The notes: generated from the letters alone by a model not told the origin. A stretch of DNA of 64,000 bases from an uncultured Acidobacteriota bacterium (GCA_963702425.1 CAVPCQ010000021.1:123118-187117), one strand, 5' to 3'. Shown: positions 34,388 through 64,000, counted from the first letter of the stretch. A program made the numbers and translations.

Positions 34388-36802
34388 ATGGAGAGAGTAC
34401 CGTTCGCTGCCGTCGCCGCCGCGATCGCGATCCTCGGCCTCGCGGCCTGCTCCCGCGACGAGGTCCGGCCGGCCGCTCCCGGTTCGTCGTCCGGTCCACC
34501 GCCCGGCTACGCCGGCTCGTCGAGCTGCCGCGAGTGCCACGAGAAGTTCTACCAGCTCTGGTCGACCTCGATGCACGGCCTGGCGATGCAGCCGTACGGC
34601 GCCGAGTTCGCGAAGGCCCGCCTTTCCCCCCAGTCGCAGCCGGTCACGATCGGCGAGTACACCTACCGCGCCGACATCGCCGGGCCGAGCGGGGCCATCG
34701 TGGAGACGGGACCCAGGGGCGAGAAGCGGTATCCGATCGAGCAGGCCCTCGGCGGCAAGAACGTCTTCTATTTTCTGACCCCCTTCCCCAACGGCCGGCT
34801 GCAGACCCTCCCCCTGGCCTACGACGTCGGCACGAAGCAGTGGTTCGACGCCGCGGAGAGCGGCATCCGCCACTTCCCGGGCGCGCGCCAGAGCGAGGCC
34901 GTCCATTGGACGGACACGCAGTACACGTTCAACACCAGCTGCTACAACTGCCACGTCAGCCAGCTCTCGACGAACTACGACGCGGCGAGCGACACCTACC
35001 ACACGACCTGGACCGAGCCGGGGATCAACTGCGAGACGTGCCACGGCCTGTCGAGGAAGCACAACGAGATCGCCCGGGCGACTCCCAAGGGCCAGCCGCT
35101 CCCCGAGCTGGGCCTGATCAGCACCAAGACCATGACCAGGGAGCAGCGCAACGACCTGTGCGTCAGCTGCCACGCCAAGGGAAGCCCGCTGACCGCGACC
35201 TACCGCCCGGGAGAGCGCTTCTTCGATCACTTCGACCTCGCCACGCTGGAAGATGCCGACTACTACCCGGACGGACGCGATCTGGGCGAGAACTACACGG
35301 CAACCTCGTGGCGCATGAGCCCGTGCGCGCAGTCCGGCCAGCTCGACTGCCTCCACTGCCACACCTCGAGCGGCCGCTACCGGTTCAAGGACCCGGCGAA
35401 GGCGAACGACTCCTGCCTGCCGTGCCACGAGGAGCGGGTGAAGAACGCCCCGGCCCACACGCACCACCCCGAGGGCAGCCCCGGGAACCGCTGCACGGCC
35501 TGTCACATGCCGATGACCGCCTTCGCGCGCATGAACCGCAGCGACCACTCGATGCTCCCGCCCGCGCCGGCGGCGACCCTCGCCTACAAGTCGCCCAACG
35601 CGTGCAACCTGTGCCACCCGGAGCAGGACGCCGCCTGGGCCGACCGGCTGGTCCGCGAGTGGCGTCCCCGCGACTACCAGGCGCCGCTCCTCGAGCGAGC
35701 GGCACTGGTGGAGGCCGCGCGCAAGCGCGACTGGAGCAGGCTGCCGGCGATGCTGGCCTACATCCGGTCGAAGGACCGCGACGAGATCTTCGCCGCCTCG
35801 CTGATCCGGCTCCTGGCGTCGTGCCCCGACGAGCGGGTCGCCCCTGCCCTGCTGGTCGCTGCCAAGGACCCGTCGCCGCTCGTGCGCTCGGCGGCGATCG
35901 ACGGGCTCGCGACCAGGCCATCGCCACAGGCCCTGCGGGCCCTGCTCGACGCGACGGGCGACGCCTACCGCGTCGTCCGGGTCCGCGCCGCCGCGGGGCT
36001 GGCCGGGTTCCCCATGGATCGGCTCCCGCCGCAGCTCCACACGCAGCTCGAGCGGGCGGACGTGGAATACGTCGACTTCATCACGACGCGCCCCGACCAG
36101 TGGTCGTCGCACTACAACCTGGGCAACTACCAGATGAGCCGCGGAGAGACGGCAAAGGCCCTGGCGTCCTTCGAGGCCGCGCTGAAGCGCGAGCCGCGGG
36201 CCGTGCTGCCGATGGTCAACGCGTCGATCGCGTACGCGCGGACGGGAGAGGTCGACAAGGCGGAGCAGATGCTGGAGAAGGCACTCGCCGTCGCGCCGGA
36301 CAGCGCAGCGGCCCAGTTCAACATGGGACTGGTGAAAGCCGAGCAGAAGGACACGAAGCAGGCGGAAGTTCACCTCAGGAAGGCGGTCGCGCTCGACCCC
36401 GGGATGGCGCAGGCCGCGTTCAACCTCTGCATCGTGATCGCGCCGGACCGCGTCGACGAGGCGATCGCCTGGTGCCGGAAGGCGGCGGAGCTGCTCCCAC
36501 AGGAGCCGCGGTACGCCTCCACGCTCGCGTTCTACCTGAACCAGAAGGGGGACCAGGCGGGCGCGGTGGCGGTCCTGACTCGCCTGATCGGCGCCCACCC
36601 GGAACATCTCGACGCCTACACGCTGCTGGGCAGCATCTACGAGGGCCAGGGGAAGCGGTCGAAGGCGGAGGGCGTGTACCGCAAGGCGCTGGCTGCGGAG
36701 GGGATGGCCGGCCAGGACAAGGTCGCGATAGCGGCCCGGCTGAGCGCGCTGCAACGGGGCGGTGCGCCGGCCCGAACTCGGCGCCCGCCCGCCTCCCCCT
36801 AA
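34388..36802 (+). CDS. Octaheme cytochrome c fused to HEAT and TPR repeats, probable lipoprotein
   Basis: Eight CxxCH motifs (CRECH, CYNCH, CETCH, CVSCH, CLHCH, CLPCH, CTACH, CNLCH); lipobox LAAC; HEAT (DPSPLVR) and TPR C-terminal half. Confidence 0.88.
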   Translation: MERVPFAAVAAAIAILGLAACSRDEVRPAAPGSSSGPPPGYAGSSSCRECHEKFYQLWSTSMHGLAMQPYGAEFAKARLSPQSQPVTIGEYTYRADIAGPSGAIVETGPRGEKRYPIEQALGGKNVFYFLTPFPNGRLQTLPLAYDVGTKQWFDAAESGIRHFPGARQSEAVHWTDTQYTFNTSCYNCHVSQLSTNYDAASDTYHTTWTEPGINCETCHGLSRKHNEIARATPKGQPLPELGLISTKTMTREQRNDLCVSCHAKGSPLTATYRPGERFFDHFDLATLEDADYYPDGRDLGENYTATSWRMSPCAQSGQLDCLHCHTSSGRYRFKDPAKANDSCLPCHEERVKNAPAHTHHPEGSPGNRCTACHMPMTAFARMNRSDHSMLPPAPAATLAYKSPNACNLCHPEQDAAWADRLVREWRPRDYQAPLLERAALVEAARKRDWSRLPAMLAYIRSKDRDEIFAASLIRLLASCPDERVAPALLVAAKDPSPLVRSAAIDGLATRPSPQALRALLDATGDAYRVVRVRAAAGLAGFPMDRLPPQLHTQLERADVEYVDFITTRPDQWSSHYNLGNYQMSRGETAKALASFEAALKREPRAVLPMVNASIAYARTGEVDKAEQMLEKALAVAPDSAAAQFNMGLVKAEQKDTKQAEVHLRKAVALDPGMAQAAFNLCIVIAPDRVDEAIAWCRKAAELLPQEPRYASTLAFYLNQKGDQAGAVAVLTRLIGAHPEHLDAYTLLGSIYEGQGKRSKAEGVYRKALAAEGMAGQDKVAIAARLSALQRGGAPARTRRPPASP

Positions 36803-36910
36803 GATCTCACGCCCTGGCCCCCACGGGTCAGACCTCTCGGATCCCCACCGATCCTCCAGTTTCCCTCACCCCCCCCTCTCCCCCCGGCTTCCGAGGTCTC
36901 TCCTCTCCCG

Positions 36911-38273
<1,363 letters not shown>

Positions 38274-38386: not shown

Positions 38387-38773
38387 CTACTTCGGCTCGC
38401 GCGCCTTACGCTGCATCACGGCCAGGTATTCATCCATCTCGCGCTCGCTGGCGAAGAGCGCCGTGCCGGGGAGCGCCTTGACGATCGCAAGGACCTTCTG
38501 AATCTGCGGCTGCAGGTTGGTCATCATGACCTGGCCGCCGGTCGCGGTGACCGTCTTCTGCGCCCGGAACAGCTCTCCAATCCCCGCGCTGGTGATGAAG
38601 TCGAGCCCGGCCAGGTCGAAGACGAGGACCTTCGGCCGCGGCGCGAGCACCGGTTCGATCTCCGTCGCGAAGCGCCGAGAAGTGTCCGAGTCGAGCCGGC
38701 CGCCGATGCTGACCACGACGGCTGGCGTGCCGCCGGAGAGATTGCGCTGGCTGACGTGCATGGTCATCGGCAT
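38387..38773 (-). CDS. STAS-domain anti-sigma-factor antagonist
   Basis: GRLDS, VFDLAGLDFITSAGI. Confidence 0.88.
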   Translation of the reverse strand: MPMTMHVSQRNLSGGTPAVVVSIGGRLDSDTSRRFATEIEPVLAPRPKVLVFDLAGLDFITSAGIGELFRAQKTVTATGGQVMMTNLQPQIQKVLAIVKALPGTALFASEREMDEYLAVMQRKAREPK

Positions 38774-38796
38774 GGGGGTTCCCTCCGGGATCCCGG

Positions 38797-40929
38797 TCAA
38801 TCTCTCTCACGGAGGGCGTTCTGTCCAAAGGGTCCGCCGCGCCCCCGCAGGAGCCAGGTCTCCATCGGTCCCTTCCCCTTGATTTCGACCGTGCCGCGCG
38901 ATTCGAACTCGTAGTCGTTCTTCAGAATTTCCCAGGTCGCCCGGGTGACGTGAATCGCTCCGGTGACGCCGTGCGACTCCATCCGGCTGGCGATGTTGAC
39001 CGTGTCGCCCCACAGGTCGTAGATGAACTTCGACGCTCCGATCACGCCGGCGACGACCGGGCCCGAGTTGACCCCGATCCGCAGCTCGATCGTGAGGCCA
39101 GTCTCCGCGCTGCAGCGCCGCGCCTCGTCGAGCATGTCGAGCGCCATCTCGATCATCCGCCGGGCGTGGTCTTCGGCCGGCGTCGGGAGCCCGGCGACGG
39201 CCATGTAGGCGTCGCCGATCGTCTTGATCTTCTCGACGCCCCGCCGCTGCGCGAGCAGATCGAAGCGGTGGAACAGGTCGTTCAGGAAGGCGACCACCTC
39301 GTTGGGCGGCCGCCCGTCGGACAGCACGGTGAAGCCGACGATGTCCGCGAAGAGGACCGAGACCTCGGCGAAGTTGTCGGCAATCGGGTTGGCGCCGGCC
39401 TTCAGCCGCGTCGCGATCGCCGGCGGGAGGATGCTCAACAGCAGCGCCTCGTTCTCCCGGTTCTTCAGCTCGATCTCGCGCGTCTGCTCCTCGATGTTGC
39501 CGGCCATGCGATTGAAGGTCGTCGCCAGCTCCGCGATCTCGTCCCGCCCGGTCACCGGGGCCCGCGCCGACAGGTCCCCTTCCGCGACGCGATGGGCCGC
39601 GTCGGCCAGCGCCTGGACCGGGCGCACGATCTGCCGCGCCAGGAACCCCGCCGCGAGCAGCGTCGCCCCCAGCACGAGCAGCGTGAACAGGATCAGCCGG
39701 CGCCGCATCGCGGCCAGCGGCGCGAGCGCTTCGGCTTCGTCGAGGCGCGCGGTGATCGCCCAGTTCAGGCCGTCGATCTTCAGCGGTCCGTAGGCGTCGA
39801 GCGTCGGGACGCCGGTGAGGCCGATTTCCGGGAGCGCCCCTTCTTCCCCTCGCAGCGCGGCCTCGACCGAGGGGAGCCGCGCGTCTTCCTGCAGCGTGGT
39901 CGAGCCGTAGGCCCGGATCCGCTCCAGCGTGTCCTCCGATACCCCCCGACCGCGCAGCATCGCCAGGTACTTCTCGCCGTCCTCGATGAAGCGTCGTGCG
40001 TTCGTGCGCAGCCGGAAGTCGGGACCGACGATGCGGGCGTCGCCCGTCGCGCCGAGGCCGTCACGCGACCAGCCGCGGTCGCCGGAGACGGCGCGGTCGA
40101 GTTCCCCGACACCGATCTCGAGCACGAGCACTCCGAGCGGCCTCCCGTGGTCGAAGATCGCCGAGCAGGCGAACGCCGCCGGGGCGCCGAGCGACGGCTC
40201 GAAATCCTCGAAGTCGGTCAGGAAGACCTCGTCGCCGCTCTTCGCCACGCGGCACTTCTCGAACGCGGCCGCGAGTCCCGTCCCCCGGTAGGGCCCCTTC
40301 ACCAGGCTGGTGCCGAGGTCCGGCTGCTTCATGACGGTGTAGACGACGCGTCCGGTCCGGTCGTCGACCAGCATCAGGTCGTCGTAGCCGAAGCGCTCGA
40401 CGAGCCGGCGGTAGGAGGGGTGGAAACGCGCGTGGACGTCGCTGTAGCGACTGCCGTCCGCGGCGCGGTCCAGCTCCTGCTTCCGGCCGCCCGGCGCGGG
40501 GTTCTTCACGAGGTACCAGTACTGCGCGTAGTGCGGGCCCCGGCCGAGCGGCAGATAGTCGTCGAAGCTCGAGCGCGGCGTCACCAGGTCGGCCAACGCG
40601 GGCAGGTAGTCCGTGCGGTAGTAGGCCGAGACGGCGTCCCTCAGGTCGGCCGGCGCTTCGGCGCCGTCGATCTCGCGGAACGCGGCCCGAAACTCCTCCA
40701 TCCCCTGCACGAACATCATCGCTTCGCTGAGCGTGCGGACGTGGTTGGTCACCGTCCGGAAGTAGCTCGCGACCGCGAACGCCTTGGCGCGGCGCACCCC
40801 GGTCAGCTGCCGCTCCACGGCTTCGATCATGCTGCTTCGCGCGTTGCGGTAGCCGATGGCGCTGGCCGCGAGCACGGCGGTGGCGCCGAGCAGGAGCAGG
40901 GCGAGCAGGAGGCGGGTGCGGATGCGCAT
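38797..40929 (-). CDS. Class III adenylate/guanylate cyclase with periplasmic Cache-like and HAMP domains
   Basis: Two TMs, HAMP DEIAELATTFN, VLFADIVGFT, KIKTIGDAYM, YDLWGDTVNIASRMES. Confidence 0.92.
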   Translation of the reverse strand: MRIRTRLLLALLLLGATAVLAASAIGYRNARSSMIEAVERQLTGVRRAKAFAVASYFRTVTNHVRTLSEAMMFVQGMEEFRAAFREIDGAEAPADLRDAVSAYYRTDYLPALADLVTPRSSFDDYLPLGRGPHYAQYWYLVKNPAPGGRKQELDRAADGSRYSDVHARFHPSYRRLVERFGYDDLMLVDDRTGRVVYTVMKQPDLGTSLVKGPYRGTGLAAAFEKCRVAKSGDEVFLTDFEDFEPSLGAPAAFACSAIFDHGRPLGVLVLEIGVGELDRAVSGDRGWSRDGLGATGDARIVGPDFRLRTNARRFIEDGEKYLAMLRGRGVSEDTLERIRAYGSTTLQEDARLPSVEAALRGEEGALPEIGLTGVPTLDAYGPLKIDGLNWAITARLDEAEALAPLAAMRRRLILFTLLVLGATLLAAGFLARQIVRPVQALADAAHRVAEGDLSARAPVTGRDEIAELATTFNRMAGNIEEQTREIELKNRENEALLLSILPPAIATRLKAGANPIADNFAEVSVLFADIVGFTVLSDGRPPNEVVAFLNDLFHRFDLLAQRRGVEKIKTIGDAYMAVAGLPTPAEDHARRMIEMALDMLDEARRCSAETGLTIELRIGVNSGPVVAGVIGASKFIYDLWGDTVNIASRMESHGVTGAIHVTRATWEILKNDYEFESRGTVEIKGKGPMETWLLRGRGGPFGQNALRERD

Positions 40930-40982: not shown

Positions 40983-42614
40983 TCAGAACCGATAGCTGAA
41001 GGAAGTGAAGAGCTGCCGGTTGTCCTCGATCCCGCCGGTCGTCTGCTCGAAGGAGAGCAGGTAGAGCCAGTGCCTCCCGAAGGCGATGTCGAAGTTGAGC
41101 CCGTACCAGAGCAGCTGCGTTTCCGGGACGTCGAGAGCAGTCCGGTCTCCCGGCGCGTGCCGCCGTCGAGCAGAACGTGGATGGTCGGCGTGATCGACGC
41201 TCCCAGCGCCAGCGAGAACAGCTGCCCCTTCGCTCGCTCGCTGTTGTAGTAAGTCGCGCGGCCTCCGACGTCGAGCCACGCGATCGGGAGCCGCGACGAC
41301 CCGAGGAGCAGCGAGTACGACTCGCCGTCCCCGGCGCCGCCGCCGCGGGCGAAGCGCGCGTTCACGCCCGCCGTCAGCCAGGGGAACGACGCCTCGGCGC
41401 GCGGCCCAGTAGCCCTCGCGGAAGGCGTCGTCGAACTCGATCAGCGGGTCGATGTAGTCGCGGTAGAGGAGCACGTTGCGCCGGCTGTCGATCCCGGCGC
41501 TCAGCGTGAACTGCTGCGTGACGCGGAAGCGCACCGTGCCGAAGATGCTCGTCGGCGAGATCGCGCTGCTCTCCTGCTCGCGCTTCCAGCCGCGGTTGAA
41601 GTCGATCTCCTGCGCCAGGTAGGCCGAGAAGCGGGGGGTGTCGTAGTAGCCCTGCAGGTAGAGGAACTCGCGGTTGATCTCCCCTTCCTGGTAGGAGCCG
41701 ACCAGGCCCATGGTGGCGCCCCAGTTGGACTTTCTCCCGGGCAGGCCGCGCAGCGTCGCGTAACCGCCGTACTGCCGGACGTCCGACGAGAAGCCGTAGG
41801 TGACCGGGTTCGGCTGCGAGCCGGCGAGGCCGCCGATCGACCAGCGCGGGCCGGCGTACTCGGCGAGCACGCCGTCGAACAGGCTGACCGTCGCCAGCGT
41901 CGGGGAGTACATCCGGCCGGCCACGACCCGCACGGGCACGTCGCGCCCCGTCCAGGAGGCGTTCGCCCGGTAGACGCGATTGGTCTGCAGCTGCGCCGAC
42001 TGGTCGCCCGAGACGCGGTAGCTCCGGTAGGTGCGGATGTCGACCTCGAGCCCCATCGGGCTGCCGCCGAGGTTCGTGCCCGCGATGCGCACGTCGACGC
42101 CCGGTTGGTTGAACTGGTAGCCGGTGTCCGGCTGCTGGACGAGGAGATAGCGCAGGCCGATCCGGCCGGCCAACCCCCAGTCGCGCAGCATCCCGCGGCC
42201 GCTGGACGCGCGCCGGGGCGCCTCTGCGGCCGCGGCCCCGGTCGCCGAGGTCGCCCGCGGCGGCAGGAGCTCGCCGCAGGCCTTGGTCGGATCGACGTGC
42301 GGGACGAAGCGGACGATGTCGCCGACGACGATGTCGAGGCCGGGGTCTTCGCGCCGGCATCCGGACTTGTGCGTGGAGACGACGAAGACATGCAGCCAGC
42401 CGACCACCGTGCCGTTGCGGACGACGTCGAGGACGTCCCCCTCCTGCACGCCTTCCTCGCTCCCGGCGTCGACGTAGACCGTCGCGGAGGTCAGGTAGGT
42501 GACCTTGGCGTCGCGGGTGACCGGTTCCGCGGCGCTCGCGATGCCGGCGGTCAGTCCGATCAGGACGAGCGCGACGAGCGCCGGCCAGGCCGACCGGTGT
42601 CGGTCACGGCCCAT
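40983..42614 (-). CDS. Outer-membrane beta-barrel protein (candidate porin partner of the multiheme cytochromes); two compensating frameshifts near 41400 and 41140
   Basis: Signal peptide IASA|A; small N-terminal beta domain (VYVDAGS..G...GD); many amphipathic strands; C-terminal FSYRF. The segment VNARFARGG...LLDGGTRRETG is in a neighbouring frame. Confidence 0.75.
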   Translation of the reverse strand: MGRDRHRSAWPALVALVLIGLTAGIASAAEPVTRDAKVTYLTSATVYVDAGSEEGVQEGDVLDVVRNGTVVGWLHVFVVSTHKSGCRREDPGLDIVVGDIVRFVPHVDPTKACGELLPPRATSATGAAAAEAPRRASSGRGMLRDWGLAGRIGLRYLLVQQPDTGYQFNQPGVDVRIAGTNLGGSPMGLEVDIRTYRSYRVSGDQSAQLQTNRVYRANASWTGRDVPVRVVAGRMYSPTLATVSLFDGVLAEYAGPRWSIGGLAGSQPNPVTYGFSSDVRQYGGYATLRGLPGRKSNWGATMGLVGSYQEGEINREFLYLQGYYDTPRFSAYLAQEIDFNRGWKREQESSAISPTSIFGTVRFRVTQQFTLSAGIDSRRNVLLYRDYIDPLIEFDDAFREGYWAARRGVVPLADGGRERALRPRRRRRGRRVVLAAPRVVAAPDRVARRRRPRDLLQQRASEGAAVLAGAGSVDHADHPRSARRRHAPGDRTALDVPETQLLWYGLNFDIAFGRHWLYLLSFEQTTGGIEDNRQLFTSFSYRF

Positions 42615-45600
42615 CAGTCGGCCCTCCCCTGCGGGTGGCACTGGTAGCAGGCGCGACTCTCGTAGCGGTAGCCTGGCTCCCCGCGGTGGTGGCCGTCCGT
42701 CTCGTTCTTGTCGCTGTGCGGATGGCATCCGAGGCAGTTGAAGTCGGCGTAGTTGTTCGAGTTCGTGTGGCAGTCCGAGCAGCGGGACCACTTGTCACGG
42801 TGCCGTCCGGAGTAGATCGGGAAGTACTGCGCGTCGTGCTCGAAGCGCGCCCCCGGCCACTGGATCGTGGTGTGGCAGAGCATGCAGTCGGTCGGGAAGT
42901 GCGCGGTGCGGTGATTCGGGTCGGTCGTCCGGTCGTAGTCGTCCTGGTGGCAGCTGGCGCACGCCGTGCTCTTGCCGTCGTACACGTTGTCGGAGTGGCA
43001 GGAGCTGCAGGCCAGCGGCACGTGGGAGCCGGTGAGCGGGAAGCTGGTGCGCGAGTGATCGAAGCGGCCGCCGTCCCAGGTCGACGGTGGTGTGGCAGTC
43101 CTGGCACGTCGCCGCGAAGCCCGCCGCGCGGTGGTTCGGGTCGGTCGTGCGGTCGTAGTCGTCCTGGTGGCAGCTGGCGCACGCCGTGCTCTTGCCGTCG
43201 TAGACCCCGTCGGCGTGGCAGGCGCTGCAGGCCAGCGGCACGTGGGCCCCGGTCAGCGGGAAGCCGGTCGACTGGTGGTTGTACGTGGCGCCGCTCCAGC
43301 TCGTGGTCCCGGTGTGGCAGACCGTGCAGTCGGTCGGGAAGCCCGCCTGGCGGTGGTTCGGGTCGGTGGCGCCGTCGTAGTCCTTCCTGTGGCAGCTGTA
43401 GCAGTCGGTCGGCTTGCCGTCGTAGACACCGTCGAAGTGACACTGGCTGCACGACAGGCCGGCGTGGGCGCCCGCCAGCGGGAACTGCGTGGTCCCGTGG
43501 TCGAACGTCGACGGCCGCCAGCCGACGATCGTGTGGCACAGCGTGCAGTCGTTCGGGAAGGCCGCCTGGCGGTGGTTCGGGTCGGTCGTCGCGTTGTAGT
43601 CGTCGGTGTGGCAGCTCTCGCACAGCGTGCTCTTCCCCGCGTACACCCCGTCGCCGTGGCACGCCGCGCAGGAGGGGGACGCGTGACCGCCGGTCAGCGG
43701 GAAGCGCGGCGTGTGCGCGTAGCTCGCACCGGCCCAGGTCGCCGTGGTGTGGCACTGCGTGCACGTGGTCGAGAAGCCCGCCGCGGCGTGTGCGGGATCG
43801 GTCGTCCGCTGGTAGTCGTCGCGGTGGCAGCTGACGCAGTCGGTCGGCTTGCCGTCGTAGACCCCGTCCGAATGGCACTGGCTGCAGGAGAGCCCGACGT
43901 GGGCCCCGGTCAGCGGGAACTGCGAGCGCCCGTGATCGAACGAGGAAGGCCGCCAGCCGACGATCGTGTGGCACAGCGTGCAGTCGTTCGGGAAGGCCGC
44001 CTGGCGGTGGGGCGGGTCGGTCGTCGCGTTGTAGTCGTCCGTGTGGCAGCTCTCGCACAGCGTGCTCTTCCCCGCGTACACCCCGTCGCCGTGGCAGGCC
44101 TGGCAGGAGGGGGACGCGTGACCGCCGGTCAGCGGGAAGCGCGGCGTGTGCGGGAAGCTCGCACCGGCCCAGGTCGCCGTGGTGTGGCACTGGGTGCAGG
44201 TCGTCGAGAAGCCCGCCGCCGCGTGCGCGGGATCGGTCGTCCGCTGGTAGTCGTCGCGGTGGCAGCTGACGCAGTCGGTCGGCTTGCCGTCGTAGACGCC
44301 GTCCGAATGGCACTGGCTGCAGGACAGCCCGACGTGGGCGCCGGTCAGCGGGAACTGCGAGCGCCCGTGGTCGAACGAGGAGGGACGCCAGCCGACGATC
44401 GTGTGGCACAGCGTGCAGTCGTTCGGGAAGGCGGCCTGGCGGTGCGGCGGGTCGGTCGTCGCGTTGTAGTCCGCGTCGTGGCAGCTCTCGCAGCGCGTGC
44501 TCTTCCCGGCGTAGACCCCGTCGCCGTGGCACGCCTGGCAGGACGCCGCGGCGTGCCCGCCGGTCAGCGGGAAGCGCGGCGGTGTGCGCGTAGCTCGCAC
44601 CGGCCCAGGTCGCCGTCGTGTGGCACTGCGTGCAGGTCGTCGAGAAGCCCGCCGCGGGGTGGGCCGGCGTCGTCGTGCGGTCGAAGTCGTCCCGGTGACA
44701 GCTGACGCAGTCGGTCGGCTTGCCGTCGTAGACCCCGTCCGAGTGGCACTGGCTGCAGGACAGCCCGACGTGGGCCCCGGTCAGCGGGAACTGCGAGCGC
44801 CCGTGGTCGAACGAGGAGGGCCGCCAGCCGACGATCGTGTGGCACAGCGTGCAGTCGTTCGGGAAGGCGGCCTGGCGGTGCGGCGGGTCGGTCGTCGCGT
44901 TGTAGTCGCGCGTCGTGGCAGCTCTCGCAGCGCGTGCTCTTCCCGGCGTAGACCCCGTCGCCGTGGCACGACTGGCAGGACGCCGCCGGCGTGCCCCCCG
45001 GTCAGCGGGAAGCGCGGGGTGTGCGCGTAGCTCGCGCCGGCCCAGGTCGCCGTCGTGTGGCACTGCGTGCAGGTCGTCGAGAAGCCCGCCGCGGGGTGGG
45101 CCGGCGAGAGGTGCGCTCGTAGTCGGGACGGTGGCAGGCGTAGCAGTCGGTGCTCTTCCCCTTGTAGACCCCGTCGCCGTGGCACGCCTGGCACGATACC
45201 CCGGCGTGTCCCGCGCTCAGCGGGAAGGTGGACACGTGGGTGAAGCTCGCCCCGGTCCAGCTGACCGTCGTGTGGCACTGCGTGCAGGTCTGCGGGAATC
45301 CGCCGGCCTTGTGCGCCGGATCGGTGGTGGCGTCGAAGTCGCGGCGATGACAGCTGACGCACTCGGTCGACAGGCCGTCGTACTGGCCGCTCGAGTGGCA
45401 CGAGGCGCAGCTCGCCGCGGTGTGCGCGCCGGTCAGCGGGAAGCCGGACTGGGAGTGGTCGAAGGTCGCGGTCTGCCAGAGACCGGTCTGGTGACACTGC
45501 CCGCAGTCGGTCGGGAAGCCGAGGGCGACGTGGTTGGGCGAGGTCGCCGATTCGTAGTCGCTCTGGTGGCACGAGTAGCAGCCGACCGGCGTGTTGACCC

Positions 45601-46114
45601 ACTGCAGCTGGCCCTGGGAGGCCGGCTTGTGGCAGGACTCGCAGTCGGCCGCGATGTGGCGCCCGGTCAGCGAGAAGCGCGTCCGCTCGTGCGCCCTCCC
45701 CATCCCGGTCCGGTCGCGGAAGTTGCGCGTGGTGTGGCACCGCCCGCAGTCGATGCCGAGCTCTCCGAGGTGGATGTCGCGGTGGCAGGAGGCGCACGAC
45801 GGGCTGGCCTGCTTGAATTCCAGCGACCGGTGGCAGTTCCGGCAGCCCGCGGTCTGGTGTCCTCCTTCCAGCGGGAAGCCCGAGATCTTCCGGTGGTCGA
45901 ACTCCTTGGAGATCGAAGCGGGAATCCAGCGGTCGGGGGCGTGGCAGAGCGCGCAGTCCTCGGTGAAGTCGCCGTGCGGATAGGGGGGATCCTCGGCCGG
46001 CTTCTCCTCGGCGCGGGCCGGGCCGCCGAGCGCCAGGAGGGTCGCGACGAGTGCCGGCAGCAGGGCGATGCGATGCCGGCGGATCCGTTTCGGGCCGTGG
46101 GCTGCGATGCTCAT
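42614..46114 (-). CDS. Giant repetitive multiheme cytochrome c (~1165 aa, ~46 CxxCH), reconstructed across ~5 frameshifts
   Basis: Signal peptide PARA|E; triheme modules CxxCH-x11-CxxCH-x20-CxxCH-x26/27 with FDH..(T/S).FPLTG.H. Fragments lie in ORF-track frames 45002, 44781, 42604, 42795 and 42614. Confidence 0.85.
43440..45110. repeat. Intragenic ~435-bp tandem repeat (145-aa hexaheme unit), ~3.5-4 near-identical copies
   Basis: For example GCCGTGGTGTGGCACTG at 43741 recurs at 44176; alternating 73-aa and 72-aa modules. Confidence 0.85.
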
Positions 46115-48256
46115 GAGGTCCCCCTCTCCTCTGCGGGCCGGGGCGGTACCTTGCCGTGGCAGTCCTGGCAGCGTCGCGGAAGCGGGCGGTAGGTGACGAC
46201 CGGGCGGCCGTCGACCTGCTTCACCGGGTGACAGCGCGCGCAGGCGACCTGCGCGTGCTTCCCCGTCAACGGGAAGTTCTTCAACGCGGCGTGATCGAAG
46301 CGCGACGCCGGGCGGAACGAATCGGAGCCGTGACAGGCCTGGCAGGCGCCGCCGTCGCGCCGGTCGTCGAACTGCGTGCCGTGCGGGCCGGCGTGGCAGT
46401 CCCGGCACGCGGCGTGGCGTGCGCGGAACTCCAGCGGGTTGGCGGTGGCGGCGGCGGCGAGCAGGAGGTTCGGCCCCCGCGGCGATTTCCCCAGCTCGGC
46501 GTGACACGTCACGCACGGCACCGCGCGGTGCGCCCCCTCCAGCGGGAACGGGCTCTTCGCGTGGTCGTCCAGGTCGAAGAGGCTGGGCATGATGCCGCCG
46601 TTGCCGTGGCAGTCGGCGCAGCCCCCGGCGCGCGTCCGGTCCCCTTTCGGCCCGAACCGGCCGGCGTGCGGATCGCGGTGACACGACTCGCACGCCCGGT
46701 TCTCGAGGTTCAGCGCGATCTTCGCCGTCCCGAGCGTCTCGGGGCCGGGAAGCGGCGGGAGCATCGGGCGGGCCGGGCCGTGGCACGCGCTGCAGGCCAC
46801 GGCCGCGTGGCGGCCGGCGATCGGGAAGCGCGTCGAGGCGTGCTCGACGGCGCCGAAGCGCGCCGGCTTCCAGCCGCCCGGCGCGTGGCACGCCCCGCAC
46901 TCCCCCTGGTCGCGGCGGGACGCCAGCTGGCCCTTGTGCGCGTCGGCGTGGCAGTCGCGGCAGGCGCCGCTCTTCGGCCGGAGCTGCGCGGACCCCTTGC
47001 CCTGCCGGCGCGTGTGACATTCCGCACACGCCACGCTGCGGTGCTTTCCTTCCAGCGGGTAGCGGGCCGACGCGTGCTGCGCGACGGTGTAGGTCGCCGG
47101 CTTGAAGCCCTCGACGCCGTGGCATGCGGCACAGTCGGCGGGGCGTCCGGCGAGCGTCGCCTGGCCGTCGTGGGCGTCGGCGTGGCACGCCCCGCAGCTG
47201 TCGAAGCGCGGCTTCGCGCCGCCGGCCCGCGGGTCGTGGCACCGCGCGCAGGCGACCGCGACGTGCCGCCCGCGCAGCGGGTAGCGCGTGCGGCCGTGAT
47301 CGAACTGCCCCTCGGCCACGCGCCGGAAGTCGTCGGTGACGTGGCACCGGCTGCACTGCGGGCCCAGCTGGGCCGCGTGCGGGTCGGCGTGGCACGCCGA
47401 GCACTCCGCGTGGGCCAGCGGCTTGAACCGCGGCAGCGGCTGCGCGACGCCGGTGCCGGCGAGCAACGCGCCGGGCGCGGGGGCAGGCGCGGCTTCGCCG
47501 GACGCCGGGTTGGAGGCCGCGGAGCTGCCGGTGACGACCACGCGGGCGCCGTCCACGCGGTGGCACTTCGCGCAGGCCGTATCGCGGTGCTTGCCGGTCA
47601 GCGGGTAGGCGGTCCGCGCGTGATCGAAGCCCGCGGCGGGACGCCAGCCTTCCGTGCCGTGGCAGCGCGCGCAGTCGGTCCCCAGCGTGTTCTCGTGCGG
47701 ATCGCGGTGGCACGCGCCGCAGGCCGCCTCGAGCCCGGTCCAGCCGCGCGACGCGTCCCGCCGCGGGGACAGGCGCTGCGCCTCCGAGACGCGGAACGCC
47801 GCCTTGTGACAGGCGTCGCAGCGCTGCGCGGCGTGCTTGCCGGCGAGCGGCCAGCCGGCGCGGCGGTGGTCGAACTTCTCCGCGCTCCCCTCGTCCCACT
47901 GGATCAGCGCGAAGTCGGCCCCGGCGTGCTCGGGGTGGCAGGACGCGCAGTCCTTCCCCTCGACCTTCGCGTGCAGCCCCCGGTCGCGAGCCGCGAGCCA
48001 GGCGATCTCCTTGTGGCAGGCAAGGCACTGCGGCGTCACCCCGCCCTTGCCGCTCGCGTGGCACTGCGAGGCACTTGAGCGAGGCGTCGAGGGACGCGTG
48101 GGCGCGCGAGAGCGGCCCCGGCGAGACCTGGGCGAACGCCGGGCCCGCGCCGGCGGCCATGATCCACACGGTCGCGAGCGACGCCACGAGCGCCGCACTA
48201 CGGCCGCGACCGTCCGCCCGCCCCGCTGGGTCCGCCACCCGGCGCGCGCTACGCAA
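46111..48256 (-). CDS. Multiheme cytochrome c (~23 CxxCH), one frameshift near 48070
   Basis: Signal peptide PAFA|QVSPGPLS.AH; 22 intact CxxCH plus one restored by removing a single base; FDH...PL.G.H modules. Start codon uncertain. Confidence 0.85.
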
Positions 48257-49720
48257 CGGCGGCCTCGCCGGCTTCCGGCAGCGGCACGTCCTTCTTCACG
48301 ATCCGCACGCCGAGCCGCTCGAGGAACGCGAAAGGCGGCTCGCCGCCGAGCCGGAGGATCACGAAGTCGTTGGGCAGCAGCTGGCGCGCCCCCTCGTGCT
48401 CCAGCTCGACCGCGTCCTCGCGGATCGCCCGCACCTGGCTCCCCAGCACCAGGCGCAGCCGGCCGTGCGCGACCGCTTCCGCGAGCTTGGCGCGGTTGCG
48501 CTCCTTCGCGCGCTCGAAGCTCGCGCCGCGATAGGACAGCGTCACCGCCGTCCCGGGCTGGTTGGCCAGGCCGACCGCCGACTCGATCGCGCTGTCGCCG
48601 CCGCCGACCACGAGCACGCGGGTGCCCTGGAAGGCCTCCATCTCGACGATGTCGTAGAAGACCTTCCCCAGCTCCTCGCCGGGGACCTCGAGACGCCGCG
48701 GGTTGCCGCGCCGCCCCATCGCCAGCACGACGCGCCGGGCGCGCAGCGGGCCGGCCGCGGTGTCGACGACGAAGAGCCCTTCGTCGCGGTGGACGTTCTT
48801 CACCTCGTGCTGCACGCGCACGTCGAGCCCGGTGTTCGAGATGATCGTCTGCCAGACCTCGAGCAGCGTCTCCTTGGAGGCGTCGCTGATCCACAGGTCG
48901 CCGTAGAGCGGGATCGAGAGCGGCTCCGCGAAGAGCAGCTTGTGGCGCGGGTACTTGCGGATCGAGTCGGCCAGCGTGCCGCGCTCGAGCACCGCGCAGG
49001 TGAGGTGCTGGCGCATCGCCTCGAGGCCGGCCGACAGGCCGGCCGGCCCGGAGCCGACGACGATCAGGTCGAGCGCACCGGAGTCTGCCGTCTGCGCGGG
49101 GCGGTCGCACCCGGCGCCCGCGGCCCGCAGCTCGGCCGCGATCGCTTCGGCGGCGATCTTCCCCTCGTTGATCGCGTTCTTGATCAGGCCGCGCCCGCCC
49201 AGCTCGCCCACGATGTAGAGCCCCGGCACGCTGCTCTCGAACCGGCCGCTCAGCGCCGGGACCTCGACGCGGTGCACCGCCGCGCCGCTCGAGAGCACGA
49301 TGCCGCCGACCGGGCAGGCCTCGACGCACTGCCCGTGGCCCTGGCAGATCGAGGTCTCGACGACGGCCAGCTTGCCGTGCAGGCGGATCGCGCCCGGCTC
49401 GGGGCAGGCCGCGACGCAGGTCCCGCAGCCGACGCAGACGTCGGCGCGCACGACCGCGTGCAGGCGCCGGCCGGCGCGCCCGGGCCGTGGGCCGCGTCCT
49501 CCGCGACCTCGCGGGCCGCGACGACCTCGAAGACCTGCTGCGGGACGCCGCAGCCGGGGCAGAAGGTCGCTCCGGGTGGGACGGCCGCGGCGCAGCGCGG
49601 GCACGGCTTCGCGGGCGCAGCCGGGGCCGTCGGCGCGGAGCCGCTCCCGGCCGACGCGCGCAGGTGGCGCCGCACCAGGAAGAGCGTCAGCACGAAGAAC
49701 GCGACGACGGTGAGGATCAT
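48249..49720 (-). CDS. Membrane-anchored zinc-ribbon + 2x[4Fe-4S] ferredoxin + TrxR/YpdA-type FAD/NAD(P)H oxidoreductase, one frameshift near 49480
   Basis: N-terminal TM, CPRC...CPGC, CVGCGTCVAACP, CQGHGQCVEACP, GSGPAG, GGGDSA, SYRG. Confidence 0.85.
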
Positions 49721-49739: not shown

Positions 49740-50818
49740 TCACCAGAACCAGGTCGCGCCGACCGCGACCACGACCGCGACGTGGATCGCGACCGCGGCG
49801 AAGGCGGAGATCGCGAACGGCTGGTGGGCCGCGTGCCAGAACCGGAAGAGACGGTGGGTCGCGTCGAGCATCCGGGCCTGCTGCGCCAGCGCCATCTCGC
49901 GCCGGGCGAGCGCGAGCACGCGGCGCAGCGCGCGGCGGTCGAGCGCGTTCGGCCGGGCGGTGCGGATCTCCGCGGCGAGGCGCCGCGCCGCGCGCCGGCG
50001 CGCGAAGTCGTCGCGCGCCATCTGCGCGACCGCCGCAGCCAGGCCGAGGCCCGCGGCGTCAGCGGCGGCCGGGGCGAGCATCGTCTCGATGCGCTGCGGG
50101 TCGAGTCCGGTCGCCGCCGCGATCTCCCCGACCAGCTCGCGCCGCCGGCCGGCGGCTTCCTCGCGCGACAGCTCGAGGCCGTCCCTCCGGCGCGGGATGC
50201 GGACGTAGATGTAGCGCCCGATGACGCCGGAGAGCGCGACGACCAGCATCGCGGCATAGCCGAGGCCGATCAGGCCGCGGAATCGCCAGCCCGCGTGGAC
50301 CGCGCCGGCCAGCGGCACGACGATGCCGGCCGCGACGTGCACGTCGAGCCAGCGCGGCACCGAGCCGGTGAAGGCGAGCCAGCGCACGCGCTTGCGCAGC
50401 GGGTAGAGCCACAGGAAGAGGAACAGCGCGAAGGCGAAGATGCCGACCGACTGCCCGACGGTGCCCGAGGGGCGGAGCCAGGGGTGCCAGGCGTGCCGCA
50501 CGCGTCCGGCCTGCGACAGCAGGTAGTAGGGGCTGCCGAGCAGCGTGATGCGGCAGCACGGCGACGGGCAGGTAGGCCAGCCGCGGGTTGGCGGCGGTCT
50601 TCGGGGCCGCGGGAACCACCGTGGCCGGGGCGGGCAGGCGGCGAGTCTGGTGCGGCCGGGCGGGGGGAGGCGTGGCCGGGAAGACGGTCTTCCCGCTGGG
50701 GGGCGTGCGGCGCGATGGGCCGAGGGCCCGCCGGGGGTTGCGACGCGCCGGGGGCCGCGCGGACCGCACGCGCGGCCTCGCCCCCGGACCGGACGACGGT
50801 CCCCTGTGATTCGCTCAT
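49740..50818 (-). CDS. Integral membrane protein with conserved TM histidines (cytochrome b/ferric-reductase-like), two frameshifts near 50585 and 50552
   Basis: ATG 50818 after GGGGAG; LYPLRKR, WLDVH, VHAGWRF, SGVIGRYIY, WHAAH.PF, IHV. Length is 3n+2, consistent with two insertions. Confidence 0.72.
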
Positions 50819-50893: not shown

Positions 50894-51226
50894 TCTAACC
50901 TATGGAAATTGAGGCACTTGGGGCCCTTCCTCTTACGATTCCGAATTCCGCCGCCCGATTACGCACACGATCTAGCCTGCAAGTAATCTCGACCGAGAGC
51001 GCCGCGCGTGGCGCCTGCTGCCCGAGCCGCACCCGTTGGCGGTCCGGGGCCCCGCCGGTTCCCCCCGCCGCCGGAAGCGCTCCCGCGAACCGCTCCCGCC
51101 CCCGACATACAATTTCACGAGTTGTTCTTTGTAAGCAGGATGCGGCGTCGTCATCCGACATACATCGGAACTTCCTCACGCTCGCCGATCGACGAGCGTA
51201 CCCTTCCGTCGAATCGGGAGGTGGCC

Positions 51227-52330
51227 ATGCGCTGCGCGGGGCTGGGGTGGAGTTGTCTCGTCGTGGTCTCCGGGGCGTTGATGTTGGTCGCGGGAGGTCT
51301 CGCCCGCGCCGGGAGCCTCGAGCCGCCGGGGCCGCCGGCTCCGACGATGAAGACGCTGCTCGAAGTCGAGCCGCGCGTCCCGGTCCAGTCCCTGACCGGC
51401 TCGAGCGTCGCGCTGTACGAGATCACCGAGCCGGGCTCGTACTACCTGGTCGACAACATCGTCGGCGGGCCCGGCATGACCGCGATCGCCATCCTCTCCA
51501 GCAACGTCGTGCTGGACCTGAACGGCTACGCGCTGATCGGAACACCGGACTCGGACACCGGGATCAACTTCATGGGCGGGCTCCAGAACTGCGTCGTGAT
51601 GAACGGGACCATCCGCGGCTGGCCCGTGAACAGCATCTTCGGCGTCAACTGCCAGGCCTGCCAGGTGCTGGACGTCCGGTCCGAGGACAGCGGCTCGCGC
51701 ATCAGCACGATCTCGGTCTGGATGGGCTTCCGCAGCCTGATCGACGGCGTGACGGTCCGCGGCAACCCGAACGGCCCGGGCGTCCAGGTCGAGGGGCTGA
51801 GCCACGTCCGGTCCACCACGGTGACGGCGAGCCTGGTCGGGTTCGTACTGAACGGCGAGAGCTGCAGCATCACGGAATCGGTTTCGACCGGAAACGCGGG
51901 TGCCGGGATCCAGGTCAACGGCAGCGGGCTGGTCTCTCACTGCGTCTCGAACAGCAACGTCGAGGGGGTGACGGTCTCCGGTGACGTGATGGTGGCGGAC
52001 AACGTGATGTTCAGCAATGAGCATGGCGTGCGCGTCACCGGCAGCAACAACCGCGTCGAGGGGAACCTCGTCACGACCTGGGACACCGGGATCGAGATCG
52101 AGGCGGGAGCGAGCGGGAACACGGTGCAGCGCAACCTGGTCGGCTGCGCCGGAAGCGGCACCGGGATCCAGGCCCAGGAGAACTCCCGCAACCTCGTCGT
52201 CGCCAACTCGGTCTCGGCCTGCACCACCCCCTACGACCTCGACCCCGCCAACGCGGTCGGCGAGATCCTCGACTTCACCGCCGGAGGCATCGTCACCTCC
52301 GGCAACCCGTACGCCAACTTCCGCTTCTGA
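51227..52330 (+). CDS. Secreted right-handed beta-helix protein (paralog A)
   Basis: RBS GGAGG; signal peptide; GSLEPPGPPAPTMKTLLEVEPR; PGSYYL, LDLNGY, N..GI repeats. Confidence 0.82.
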   Translation: MRCAGLGWSCLVVVSGALMLVAGGLARAGSLEPPGPPAPTMKTLLEVEPRVPVQSLTGSSVALYEITEPGSYYLVDNIVGGPGMTAIAILSSNVVLDLNGYALIGTPDSDTGINFMGGLQNCVVMNGTIRGWPVNSIFGVNCQACQVLDVRSEDSGSRISTISVWMGFRSLIDGVTVRGNPNGPGVQVEGLSHVRSTTVTASLVGFVLNGESCSITESVSTGNAGAGIQVNGSGLVSHCVSNSNVEGVTVSGDVMVADNVMFSNEHGVRVTGSNNRVEGNLVTTWDTGIEIEAGASGNTVQRNLVGCAGSGTGIQAQENSRNLVVANSVSACTTPYDLDPANAVGEILDFTAGGIVTSGNPYANFRF

Positions 52331-52351
52331 CGCGGACTCGCGGGAGGAACG

Positions 52352-53248
52352 ATGAGCGAGCGCACCGGAACGGAGGGAGGGAAGGCCCGGGGCCGGCCGC
52401 GGCCGGTCGCCGGGCTCGCGCTGGTGACGTGCGTCGCCGCCGCGGCGTGGCTCGCCGCGGCCCCGGCGAGCGCGCAGTCCAACATCGATCCCGGGGACGC
52501 CGGGCTCCGCTACGCCTGGAGCGAGAACACGGGCTGGCTCAATGCCCGGCCGCTGGGCGCGGCCGGGCCCGGAGTTCTCGTCTCCGACTTCGCGTTGACC
52601 GGCTGGCTCTGGGCCGAGAATGTCGGCTGGATCAACCTGTCGTGCCGGAACCGCGGGACCTGTGCGGCCGCGCCCTACGGCGTGGTCAACGACGGGCAGG
52701 GCCACCTCTCCGGTTTCGCCTGGGGCGAGAACGTCGGCTGGATCGACTTCGGTCCAACCGGTGCCGGCGTGACGATCGATCCCGCGACCGGGGTCTTCTC
52801 CGGGCTGGCCTGGGGCGAGAACGTCGGCTGGATCTCGTTCGCCGGGACGGGTCCCGCACCCTTCGCGATCGAGACGGCGTGGCGCTGCAGCCCGCCCCCG
52901 CCCGCCCCGGCGGGCGTCCCGCGGCTCACGCTGCACGGCGTGGCGGAGGGGACGCGGCTCGATTGGACGGTCCTGCCCGGCGCCACGGCCTACGACGTGG
53001 TGCGCGGCGACCTGCGCACGCTGGCGCTGTCGGGCGGCGACTTCACGTCCGCGGTCACCGGCTGCGACGCGCGCCGGACCGCCGCCTCCACGATGCTGAC
53101 GACGCTCACTCCCTCCCCGGCGGGAGGGTTCTTCTACCTCGTGCGGGGCGCGAACTGCGGCGCCGCCGGCACGTTCGACTCGGGCGGTCCGGGGCAGGTC
53201 GGATCTCGCGACGGCGAGATCGCCGTCTCCCCGAACCGCTGCCCGTAG
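52352..53248 (+). CDS. Secreted protein with W(G/S/A)ENxGW repeats and the same C-terminal domain as 1089..5576
   Basis: Four AW.EN.GW(I/L)-type repeats, Pro linker, YDVVRG...YLVRGANC...NRCP*. Confidence 0.8.
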   Translation: MSERTGTEGGKARGRPRPVAGLALVTCVAAAAWLAAAPASAQSNIDPGDAGLRYAWSENTGWLNARPLGAAGPGVLVSDFALTGWLWAENVGWINLSCRNRGTCAAAPYGVVNDGQGHLSGFAWGENVGWIDFGPTGAGVTIDPATGVFSGLAWGENVGWISFAGTGPAPFAIETAWRCSPPPPAPAGVPRLTLHGVAEGTRLDWTVLPGATAYDVVRGDLRTLALSGGDFTSAVTGCDARRTAASTMLTTLTPSPAGGFFYLVRGANCGAAGTFDSGGPGQVGSRDGEIAVSPNRCP

Positions 53249-53269
53249 CGCACGAAAGGAGAAACGGCC

Positions 53270-54367
53270 ATGCGTCCCAGGACGCGTTCACTGGGCTTCA
53301 TTCTCGGCGGGCTGATCGCGGCGGCCATCGCGGGCCCCGCTCTCGCCGGGTCGCTCGATCCGCCGGGGCCTCCCGCCCCGACCATGAAGACGCTGCTCGA
53401 GGTCGAGCCGCGGATCCCCGTGGAGCGGCTCCCCGGCTCGGCGACGGCGATGCACGTCATCACCGCCCCGGGCTCGTACGTCCTGACCGGCAACCTCGTC
53501 GCTGCCGGCGACATCGCCGCGATCGAGGTCGCCTCGGACAACGTGACGATCGACCTCAACGGCTTCGCGCTGATTGCGGAGAGCGCCGGGGCTGCGTCGG
53601 CGATCGACTTTCCCGCCGAGCAGCACTCGATCGCGATCCGCAACGGAACGATCAAGGGCTGGGGAGCGCACGCCATCCGCGGCTGGAACTGCAAGGACTG
53701 CCAGGTCCGCCGGATCCTCGCAACCGACAACAGCCTGGGGGGCGGTTACTCCGTGATCCAGCTCGGCGAGAGCGCCACGGTGTCGGAGTGCACCGTCGGC
53801 AATGCGGGCTTCACCGGGATCCAGGTCAGTGCCGGGAGCCTGATCGAAGACTGCATTGCGATCTGGTGCGGGCAGGGGTTCGAGCTGAGCGGCGAGAACT
53901 ACACGATCGTGCGCTCGGTGGCGCGCTACAACGGCGGCTACGGCATCTACCTCCAGGGCAGCGGGATCGTGGAGGACTGCGTCAGCGAGGGGAACCAGAT
54001 CGGGATCTACACCTCGAACAGTGTCCGCGTGGTGCGCAACACGGTCTCGAACAACGCGGTCTTCGGCATTCTCGTGGGCGGCTTCCACAACCTCGTGGCC
54101 GACAACCTGATCAACGGCCACTCCGCGGCCGGGGTGAAGATCCTGCCCGGGCTCGCGGGCGTCGTGCTCACGCGGAACCAGCTGGTCGGGAACGGGATCG
54201 GGGTCGAGGTCCAGGACGTCGGCGGGAACCTGATCGTCGGCAACACGGCGTCCGGCAACGGGATCGACTACAACGTCAGCCCGGCCAACGCCCTGGGCGC
54301 GGTCCACGACTTCACGGGCGGCGGCACGATCTCCATCGCCGCGCCCTGGGCGAACCTGCGCCACTGA
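53270..54367 (+). CDS. Secreted right-handed beta-helix protein (paralog B)
   Basis: RBS AAGGAG; GSLDPPGPPAPTMKTLLEVEPR; same architecture as paralog A. Confidence 0.82.
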   Translation: MRPRTRSLGFILGGLIAAAIAGPALAGSLDPPGPPAPTMKTLLEVEPRIPVERLPGSATAMHVITAPGSYVLTGNLVAAGDIAAIEVASDNVTIDLNGFALIAESAGAASAIDFPAEQHSIAIRNGTIKGWGAHAIRGWNCKDCQVRRILATDNSLGGGYSVIQLGESATVSECTVGNAGFTGIQVSAGSLIEDCIAIWCGQGFELSGENYTIVRSVARYNGGYGIYLQGSGIVEDCVSEGNQIGIYTSNSVRVVRNTVSNNAVFGILVGGFHNLVADNLINGHSAAGVKILPGLAGVVLTRNQLVGNGIGVEVQDVGGNLIVGNTASGNGIDYNVSPANALGAVHDFTGGGTISIAAPWANLRH

Positions 54368-55682: not shown

Positions 55683-56190
55683 CGGAGACCGCGGGCAGCT
55701 CCGCCATGGCGGCCCGCACGTCGCGCGCAATCGCGTCGGCCAGGGCCGGTGCCACGCGCTGAAGGTCCGGCGTCAGCGTGGCGCGGAATTCGTTCGCCGG
55801 CTCGATCTCGACGGCGTAGATCGCGATCGCCTCGTCCGGCGGGAGGTCCATCCCGAGCCTCCGCCCCAACGCGAGCGCGGTCGCGAGGTCCGCGTCGTGC
55901 GGGCCAGCGAGGCGGCGCGTCGGCGGCAGTGCGCCGGCCGTAAAGCGGTGCAGCGTCCCCGGCGCCGCCTGGCCGGTGACGATCGCGTCGACCAGGAAGA
56001 TGCGCTCGCGCCCGGCCAGCGGCTCGAGCAGCTCCAGCCCCCCGGACGAGCAGTCGTCGATCACGTCGATCTCCGCGAGGGGACCGCTGCCGGAGAGCCG
56101 CGCCGCGGCCGCCGCGGCCAGCACAAGGCCGATCGCATCGTCCCCAAGGATCGGGTTGCCCAGCCCCAGGAGCAGCGTGTTCGCCGGCAT
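55654..56190 (-). CDS. Hydrogenase maturation protease
   Basis: LGLGNPILGDDAIG, LVDAI, HD motifs; last gene of the hydrogenase operon. Confidence 0.9.
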   Translation of the reverse strand: MPANTLLLGLGNPILGDDAIGLVLAAAAAARLSGSGPLAEIDVIDDCSSGGLELLEPLAGRERIFLVDAIVTGQAAPGTLHRFTAGALPPTRRLAGPHDADLATALALGRRLGMDLPPDEAIAIYAVEIEPANEFRATLTPDLQRVAPALADAIARDVRAAMAELPAVSATSRPRSAR

Positions 56191-56213
56191 GGAAGCCTCC
56201 CTCCTCTCCCCGC

Positions 56214-58642: not shown

Positions 58643-58645
58643 CGC

Positions 58646-60792: not shown

Positions 60793-60802
60793 CGCTCCTC
60801 CC

Positions 60803-61981: not shown

Positions 61982-61991
61982 CGGCCTCTCC

Positions 61992-63839: not shown

Positions 63840-64000
63840 CGGGACTCTCCTCGAGGAGCTGCGGAACGCGACGGGGCGCACGGGGCGCCGCAGAAGGCGC
63901 GGGGATCGGGCATGTGTGGGCGCGGCGTTCAGTAGCGCCGCACTCGCGTCCCTCGACGCCGCACGCGAGTTCCGGCGCGCCGGCCCGCCCAACCCAGGGC

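Follow-up and report, generated by a model that had tools for sequence, protein, structure and literature searches.

The window, a 64,000-nucleotide stretch from an uncultured Acidobacteriota bacterium (GCA_963702425.1 CAVPCQ010000021.1:123118-187117), carries five overlapping or closely spaced genes on one strand (Table 1). The order is heme-b-type membrane protein, Fe-S flavoprotein, 23-heme cytochrome (MHC-A), 46-heme cytochrome (MHC-B, the fourth gene) and beta-barrel. The MHC-A stop overlaps the MHC-B start, and the first motif of MHC-A is broken near 48068. The barrel gene has compensating breaks near 41401 and 41130 and encodes an N-terminal FlgT_C-like domain; besides this weak domain, no Pfam family was matched by the barrel. 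Over the last 286 codons of the membrane-protein gene, five segments are given by a crude hydropathy scan, two of them weak (1.56 and 1.57). Rfam gave 0 matches in the 64-kb window.

Table 1. Features of the five-gene operon and of MHC-B (positions in the window)
Feature	Position	Strand	Remarks
Inner-membrane protein	49740..50770	-	two WX3HX13H motifs and SGVIG (SGXXG); break near 50550; start approximate
Fe-S and FAD/NAD(P) oxidoreductase	48249..49720	-	Pyr_redox_3, Fer4; hydrophobic N-terminus; break near 49477
MHC-A, 23-heme cytochrome	46111..48256	-	22 motifs in frame; start approximate
MHC-B, 46-heme cytochrome	42614..46114	-	1165 codons read across five single-base breaks
Sec signal peptide, predicted	46010..46114	-	AxA cleavage site, no lipobox Cys; by eye
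Fixed head	45446..46009	-	heme 1 and two triheme modules (hemes 2-7)
Variable array, 12 triheme modules, hemes 8-43	42818..45445	-	each with FPLxGxH, 3 CxxCH, 3 spare His
Two copies of near-identical tract at 435-bp lag	44263..45108	-	about 45108-44700 and 44672-44263; approximate
Alternating core, four 73-aa A and three 72-aa B modules, period 435 bp	43488..45013	-
Fixed C-terminal cap, hemes 44-46	42614..42817	-	FPIYSG...CYxCHPxG
Outer-membrane beta-barrel	40983..42614	-	start overlaps MHC-B stop; ends in YRF

MHC-B begins with the ATG at 46114 and ends with the stop at 42614; its 3501 nt include a net excess of 3 nt, which leaves 1165 codons. Breaks lie near 45106, 44988, 44908, 44580 and 43082. 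In six-frame translation the minus strand carries 46 CxxCH between 45955 and 42649. They are spread over three frames, with five net shifts of frame; once the frames are joined, the 46 motifs in about 1165 residues given by the initial annotation are recovered (1165/46, or 25.3 residues per heme). All six frames of the whole window contain 87 CxxCH, and since only 3 of these fall outside cytochrome genes, the motif density of MHC-B is far beyond chance. The protein is parsed as signal peptide, heme 1, fourteen triheme modules and three-heme cap. A similar plain signal peptide without lipobox is seen by eye in the listed relatives.

Modules 5-11 alternate between 73 aa (A) and 72 aa (B), resulting in a period of 435 bp. 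Tandem Repeats Finder reports periods of 435 (5.3 copies, 85% matches) and 219 (10.6 copies), in agreement with the alternation first described. Exactly three CxxCH and three extra His, the number claimed for each module, are present in nine of the ten in-frame modules inspected; the tenth was cut so as to take in one cap His. Across 82 aligned six-module segments the spare His show little or no variation. With one near-invariant spare His per heme, bis-His ligation of the MHC-B hemes is the natural inference, and a non-catalytic, all-bis-His protein, as originally proposed, fits the sequence.

A protein from another assembly, P0160, is likewise 1165 aa long and has the same module set in the same order, with 97.6-100% identity to MHC-B in five of six pieces. 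It is in frame at all five MHC-B break sites; a compensating break pair of its own masks 3 motifs, and because of it identity in the sixth piece is 86.5%. From equal length, equal module order and open frame at the breaks it follows, as far as sequence comparison goes, that the array is real and not an assembly expansion, and that the five breaks are probably sequencing errors. Assembly expansion of the repeat number is hardly credible. The four public runs compared are all contigs and none spans the array, and one 400-nt tract is nearly identical between copies, but copy-specific variants stand in equal order in the window, G004 and P0160, and the 40-heme version of a congener is one open frame. 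The initial annotation had named such an expansion among its refuting cases.

Contigs about 98% identical to the window carry the opposite indel at 43082 (4 of 4 runs), 44987/44988 (2 runs) and 45106 (1 run); the 44908 and 44580 breaks are absent among the indel rows listed for these contigs. Break sites differ between assemblies. Each of the five operon genes is broken at least once, and indel density against congeners is patchy, about 1-2 per kb in the operon versus 0-1.4 per kb in the flanks; both speak for real breaks and a recent pseudogene operon in the source strain. This reading is considered very improbable: every heme motif is retained, close relatives are open-framed at the MHC-B break sites, G003, G004 and P0160 are each broken at other sites of their own, and the window also contains a 78-base C run. 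The run (36907-36984) is nearly pure C, lies between two convergent genes and is probably a sequencing or assembly artefact.

Four congeneric genomes, window included, have 40, 40, 46 and 49 hemes (G004 49; G003 40; G001 40, one open frame); in a further congener, G002, the sequence stops ahead of the gene. These copy numbers bear out the anticipated change of length by repeat expansion or contraction. The basic unit had been given as a 145-aa hexaheme; the step in the family is instead a triheme, and G004 has one additional single triheme compared with the window. The 145-aa A/B unit is common to all four congeneric genomes and is therefore older than their split. An independent 73+72 unit is present in G008 and G017, members of another genus.

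Near-identity of DNA at 435 bp, claimed for the core as a whole, holds for one tract of about 400 nt but not for the other core pairs at this lag. Between modules 5 and 7 there are 3 substitutions in 219 nt; the remaining lag-435 core pairs show 10, 13, 21 and 21, and pairwise identity is 87-98%. The tract has a boundary within a B module. Tract and boundary are also present in G004, so that the tract is no novelty of the strain. A modules of G003 are 98.6-99.1% identical to one another and 89-91% to those of other congeners; at fourfold sites 37/37 to 37/38 match, versus 0.71-0.90 to other congeners. B modules are weakly homogenised, with 29/38 to 31/39 matches at fourfold sites. A tree was built from 57 modules, both head modules of each gene being left out; in it, copies cluster by genome for G003 A, G001 B, G008 and G017; no such clustering is observed for the window and G004, which have sub-blocks in common. 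Mere GC bias was rejected as the cause of repeat identity (fourfold-site chance 0.48 versus 36/38 in the best window pair). Sequence comparison thus demonstrates in-frame gain and loss of whole modules and patchy homogenisation of copies within one gene. The history appears to comprise many rounds of unequal exchange and conversion, each involving one or two modules, rather than a single recent burst. Of the recent tandem amplification originally proposed, the homogenisation remains, patchily; the A/B unit itself, found in all four congeneric genomes, does not fit.

Relatives were collected in two ways. A cap-alignment scan of species-representative genomes gave 445 related stretches, of which the best 79 loci belong to Gemmatimonadota (21), Bacteroidota (20), Acidobacteriota (12), Eisenbacteria (8), Ignavibacteriota (4) and five further smaller phyla, 8 having no phylum in the title. 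The closest of these 79 are Acidobacteria/Acidobacteriota. Intact head and cap are present in 72 ORFs from 65 of the 79 loci; the 14 truncated, broken or irregular loci were dropped. The heme number is 3n+1 in 72 of 72 (range 10-61, median 23.5; at least 46 in 6). Among the 33 ORFs with at least 28 hemes, 13 hold a module pair at least 90% identical in DNA and 10 have a two-module period. A protein search confined to 880-2510 residues gave 2235 relatives among 4359 candidates. The best 120 of the 2235, a set biased to long proteins, have between 42 and 100 motifs each. Head and cap are present in 73 of these 120, and of the 73, 66 have 3n+1 hemes, up to 100. These alignments establish a family plan of heme 1, two fixed head modules, n triheme modules and a fixed three-heme cap. 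Since relatives span 10-100 hemes, some with near-identical modules, neither the size nor the recent repeats of MHC-B are special, and by this count 46 hemes is ordinary for the family.

Several members depart from the simple plan. An Eisenbacteria locus (L029:4612-10228, plus strand) encodes about 75-76 hemes in three frame pieces, with modules up to 96% identical. In L054, L055, L068, L074 and L092 cap-like spacings (35-37, 15, 26-29) recur inside the array; this suggests, for these Bacteroidota/Ignavibacteria-type members, larger repeat units that include a cap. Tandem paralogs, long (22-58 hemes) then short (13-16 hemes), are present in L038, L051, L058, L075, L082, L084 and L099, in most of which the short one precedes the barrel gene. 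The pairs may represent two wire lengths, or the short one only may plug the barrel. Other large cytochromes of the window's own genome, with different spacing and without FPLxGxH, are encoded at G000:C6:306252-309591 (26 and 16 hemes, in tandem) and G000:C37:38372-41269 (19 hemes). A plasmid search gave one match for the cytochrome, an Emticicia plasmid, and none with the operon membrane protein. In the ESM Atlas only uninformative or nameless clusters matched.

The MHC-B gene is accounted for by its membership of a conserved five-gene operon, which the initial annotation had overlooked. Barrel, membrane protein and oxidoreductase occur together in 41 of the 42 loci of at least 19 kb. Two WX3HX13H motifs with SGXXG are found in the window, in P0001 (341 aa) and in 38 of these 42 loci. 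MHC-A relatives contain mostly 17, 20 or 23 hemes, while the MHC-B counterpart varies tenfold. A search of 61 genomes, own genome counted, located the C-terminal part of the barrel in 23. The cytochrome c assembly family is matched three times in the own genome. In L035, L039, L043, L078 and L098 the membrane protein and oxidoreductase lie downstream of the barrel, not upstream of the cytochrome.

The cluster resembles the porin-cytochrome cluster PCC3, defined by He et al. 2017 (PMC5566968). According to the available text of that paper, the variable PCC3 cytochrome has 34 hemes in the median and 85 at most, contains repeats and was proposed as a molecular wire; in the available text of Hoover et al. 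2023 (PMC9900912), PCC3 cytochromes have 10-35 hemes and long, mostly linear models. A 2025 preprint, from its accessible part, describes PCC3 as expressed, with the function still to be tested (10.1101/2025.02.27.639646); He et al. likewise regard the function as awaiting a test. Common to PCC3 and the present cluster are a porin and a membrane protein with two WX3HX13H motifs and SGXXG (about 300 aa and five transmembrane helices in PCC3); these motifs also occur in PCC4 and so are not specific to PCC3. The porin feature is represented here by an adjacent gene whose product ends in Phe, is predicted to form a barrel and weakly matches PDB 6r2q_B. PCC3 has one cytochrome of about 21-27 hemes and one variable cytochrome, here 23 and 46 (relatives 17-23 and 10-61), and 22-39 aa per heme with internal repeats; MHC-B, also with repeats, lies within this range. 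Four genes are described for PCC3; here the Fe-S/FAD oxidoreductase is a fifth. Heme counts of Gallionellaceae PCC3 (10-18, 26, 28, 29, 33, 35) break the 3n+1 rule, whereas the counts here obey it. Hosts here are Acidobacteriota, Gemmatimonadota, Bacteroidota and others, with no Proteobacteria named among the best 79 of the 445 loci. With the motif and size features in common and a fifth gene, the five-gene cluster is filed as a PCC3 variant, by comparison of motifs, size and gene content with the published description.

Another comparable cluster is the 24/49-heme porin cluster of Burkholderiales S13 (Arbour et al. 2020, PMC7399161). It also has two large cytochromes before the porin and about 23 aa per heme, and the 49-heme porin-linked cytochrome shows indels of CxxCH domains among close relatives. 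It belongs to another phylum. The available text of PMC7399161 describes neither a repeat unit nor a rule for the step size, and it mentions no homogenisation and no model of barrel threading. In its accessible part, a peat preprint of 2026 (10.64898/2026.05.27.727921) reports up to 116 motifs and describes other clusters. The bioRxiv peat clusters EET1-4 were rejected as this system, their cytochromes having 8-13 hemes in the text at hand. The parts available of PMC12977616, PMC6344600 and PMC11475568 contain nothing specific on this system. In full-text literature, mostly from non-subscription journals, no paper was found on the 3n+1 rule, the five-gene form or head-in-barrel threading, or on PCC3 with Acidobacteriota. 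New here, compared with the available text of these papers, are the head-array-cap 3n+1 rule and the specific head-in-barrel topology, the latter as predicted by modelling. Model figures in PMC9900912 may already depict a barrel arrangement.

The complex was modelled with the shortest natural form, a 10-heme relative of the same class (head and cap only), and the barrel of that relative in place of MHC-B and its barrel, from alignments of 59 and 31 rows. The score is 0.62, with 0.00 for the best control. Among solved complexes 116 of 157 reach this mark, among mismatched pairs 2 of 215, figures roughly valid for these alignments. At least 60% of contacts recur between runs. Partner pLDDT is 73 or higher; that of the barrel in the complex is 75-78, with contacts on alternate residues of strands (lumen-type). 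Confident contacts involve cytochrome residues 33-180 (hemes 2-7) only, and none involve heme 1 or the cap. Cytochrome residues 92, 110, 107 and 167 contact last-strand residues 499/497, 497/495, 495/493 and 493, respectively. Residue 167, just past heme 7, also contacts barrel residue 117; 117 and 493 are read in the model as lying where the first and last strands end on the outer side. In the standard topology the C-terminal Phe of a barrel is on the periplasmic side. As the contacts climb the last strand away from it, the point of module insertion after heme 7 would be at the outer mouth, an orientation derived from the 25 best contact pairs and the assumed barrel topology. The complex model supports binding of barrel and cytochrome. 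Contact residues are no better conserved than their neighbours (0.47 versus 0.51). The barrel profile matches 6r2q_B, which we take to be MtrB, at E 1.9e-4, and the complex model may therefore echo MtrAB.

The chain was also modelled by itself. An alignment-based model of six modules has pLDDT 73 and pTM 0.36; single-sequence AlphaFold2 of 339 residues gives pLDDT 34. With a heme-free 437-residue model, a weak query, Foldseek returned 0 matches at E 0.001 and VIA-align 0 of 48161 at Z 2. Searching PDB sequences with the single protein yielded one match, at chance level.

Two known types of multiheme chain are relevant. As in MtrAB(C) of Shewanella, a multiheme chain would be threaded, according to the model, through a beta-barrel, and the shortest MHC-B relatives have 10 hemes, as in MtrAB(C). 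The barrel here (about 400 residues) is shorter than MtrB. The outer part in Shewanella is a separate lipoprotein, MtrC; here one chain would provide both in-barrel part and outer extension. None of 59 barrels matches an MtrB/PioB-family porin in Pfam or NCBIfam at E 0.01, and the N-terminal piece of MHC-B reaches 25.1 bits versus a cut-off of 192.2 for the DmsE/MtrA decaheme family (TIGR03508). Tandem triheme bis-His domains are likewise a feature of c7-type polymers such as GSU1996 of Geobacter. Pfam Cytochrome_C7 matches MHC-B above cut-off (100.9 bits), the c7 nanowire model TIGR04257 reaches 34.7 versus a cut-off of 40, and the MHC-B profile matches 3ov0_A, presumably GSU1996, at E 1.2e-6. 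No fold match was obtained in the PDB with a query model that lacks hemes and exceeds 400 aa, and is thus weak. MHC-B differs from GSU1996 in motif spacing (about 32/16/25) and in having a dedicated barrel.

With moderate confidence, MHC-B is regarded as the outer cytochrome, variable in length, of a PCC3-like electron conduit that is encoded by five genes and crosses the envelope, head in the barrel and array outside. Hemes 2-7 would sit inside the adjoining barrel, with the C-terminal end of the head at the outer mouth, as modelled. Array and cap (39 hemes here) would project from the cell as one covalent bis-His chain. Heme chains rise about 1 nm per heme, and a straight array with cap would measure perhaps 35-40 nm. 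The near-constant partner MHC-A (17-23 hemes) would span the periplasm, a role that its constant length fits, in contrast to the tenfold variation of MHC-B. Membrane protein and flavoprotein would connect the chain to quinones and NAD(P)H. Electron export to minerals, humics or partner cells is most likely, the direction of flow being a guess. Against a surface chain stand the plain signal peptide of MHC-B and its want of a lipid anchor, and no route is known to us by which a heme-loaded chain of over 900 residues could cross the outer membrane.

The array could instead be periplasmic, an electron store or lateral wire, with the head reversed in the barrel or the chain unanchored. The listed members have the plain, lipobox-free signal peptides noted above; 'extracellular' is a software prediction in the available text of the PCC3 papers; capacitor roles are proposed in the accessible parts of PMC9900912 and PMC7399161; and in the seven loci with a long then a short 13-16-heme copy, one barrel may hold one only. 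This arrangement is nevertheless judged unlikely. In the complex model modules are inserted at the outer rim, a chain of 100 hemes would be much longer than the periplasm is wide, and it is the partner cytochrome, not MHC-B, that shows the constrained length of a periplasm spanner.

Distinctly improbable is an anchored head with the array folded into a compact surface heme cluster, in which module number would determine storage or surface avidity, not reach. The low pTM of the six-module model is compatible with various module-to-module geometries, and the two-module period of MHC-B and of the 10 long relatives could mean that the chain repeats as a zig-zag or helix. In the available text of PMC9900912, however, the models that AlphaFold gives for PCC3 cytochromes are long and mostly linear, and an open chain would tolerate gain or loss of single modules more easily.

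Beyond the conduit with an outer array, a wider proposal is offered tentatively, as possible rather than expected: the family would comprise widespread one-polypeptide surface nanowires, the head of which threads and plugs a dedicated barrel, possibly also the export channel, and the reach of which is set genetically by triheme recombination (10-100 hemes). Unlike polymerised nanowires, such a wire would be a single, tape-measure-like polypeptide. If this is true, a cell with tandem short and long paralogs could have two different reaches. If the model holds, electron-transfer reach would be a countable genetic trait, and the export route of heme-loaded chains would need explaining. The model specifies the in-barrel cytochrome, the site of length addition and a natural length series. 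The proposed conduit occurs in at least ten phyla, cultured Bacteroidota included (Lutibacter oceani, with 31 hemes; Saccharicrinis; Mangrovibacterium, with 16 hemes; Emticicia). MHC-B is not important as a record of size; larger cytochromes are published and common in databases.

Other genes of the window surround the operon. Directly downstream of the barrel is a HAMP-domain adenylate/guanylate cyclase (38387-40929, minus strand), followed by a small STAS-like ORF, by eye. An octaheme cytochrome (36984-38273, minus strand; Pfam Multi-haem_cyto) lies downstream of the operon in congeners too, and a second one (34388-36802, plus strand) has HEAT and TPR repeats. Translations read by eye at 55654-63992 (minus strand) include two HdrA-like flavoproteins, an HdrC-like Fe-S/membrane protein, large and small subunits of a NiFe hydrogenase and a maturation protease; the Hdr-like and hydrogenase genes are a possible electron source. 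At 51008-54367 (plus strand), two paralogous secreted proteins with parallel beta-helix-like repeats and a common N-terminal motif flank a third secreted protein, by eye.
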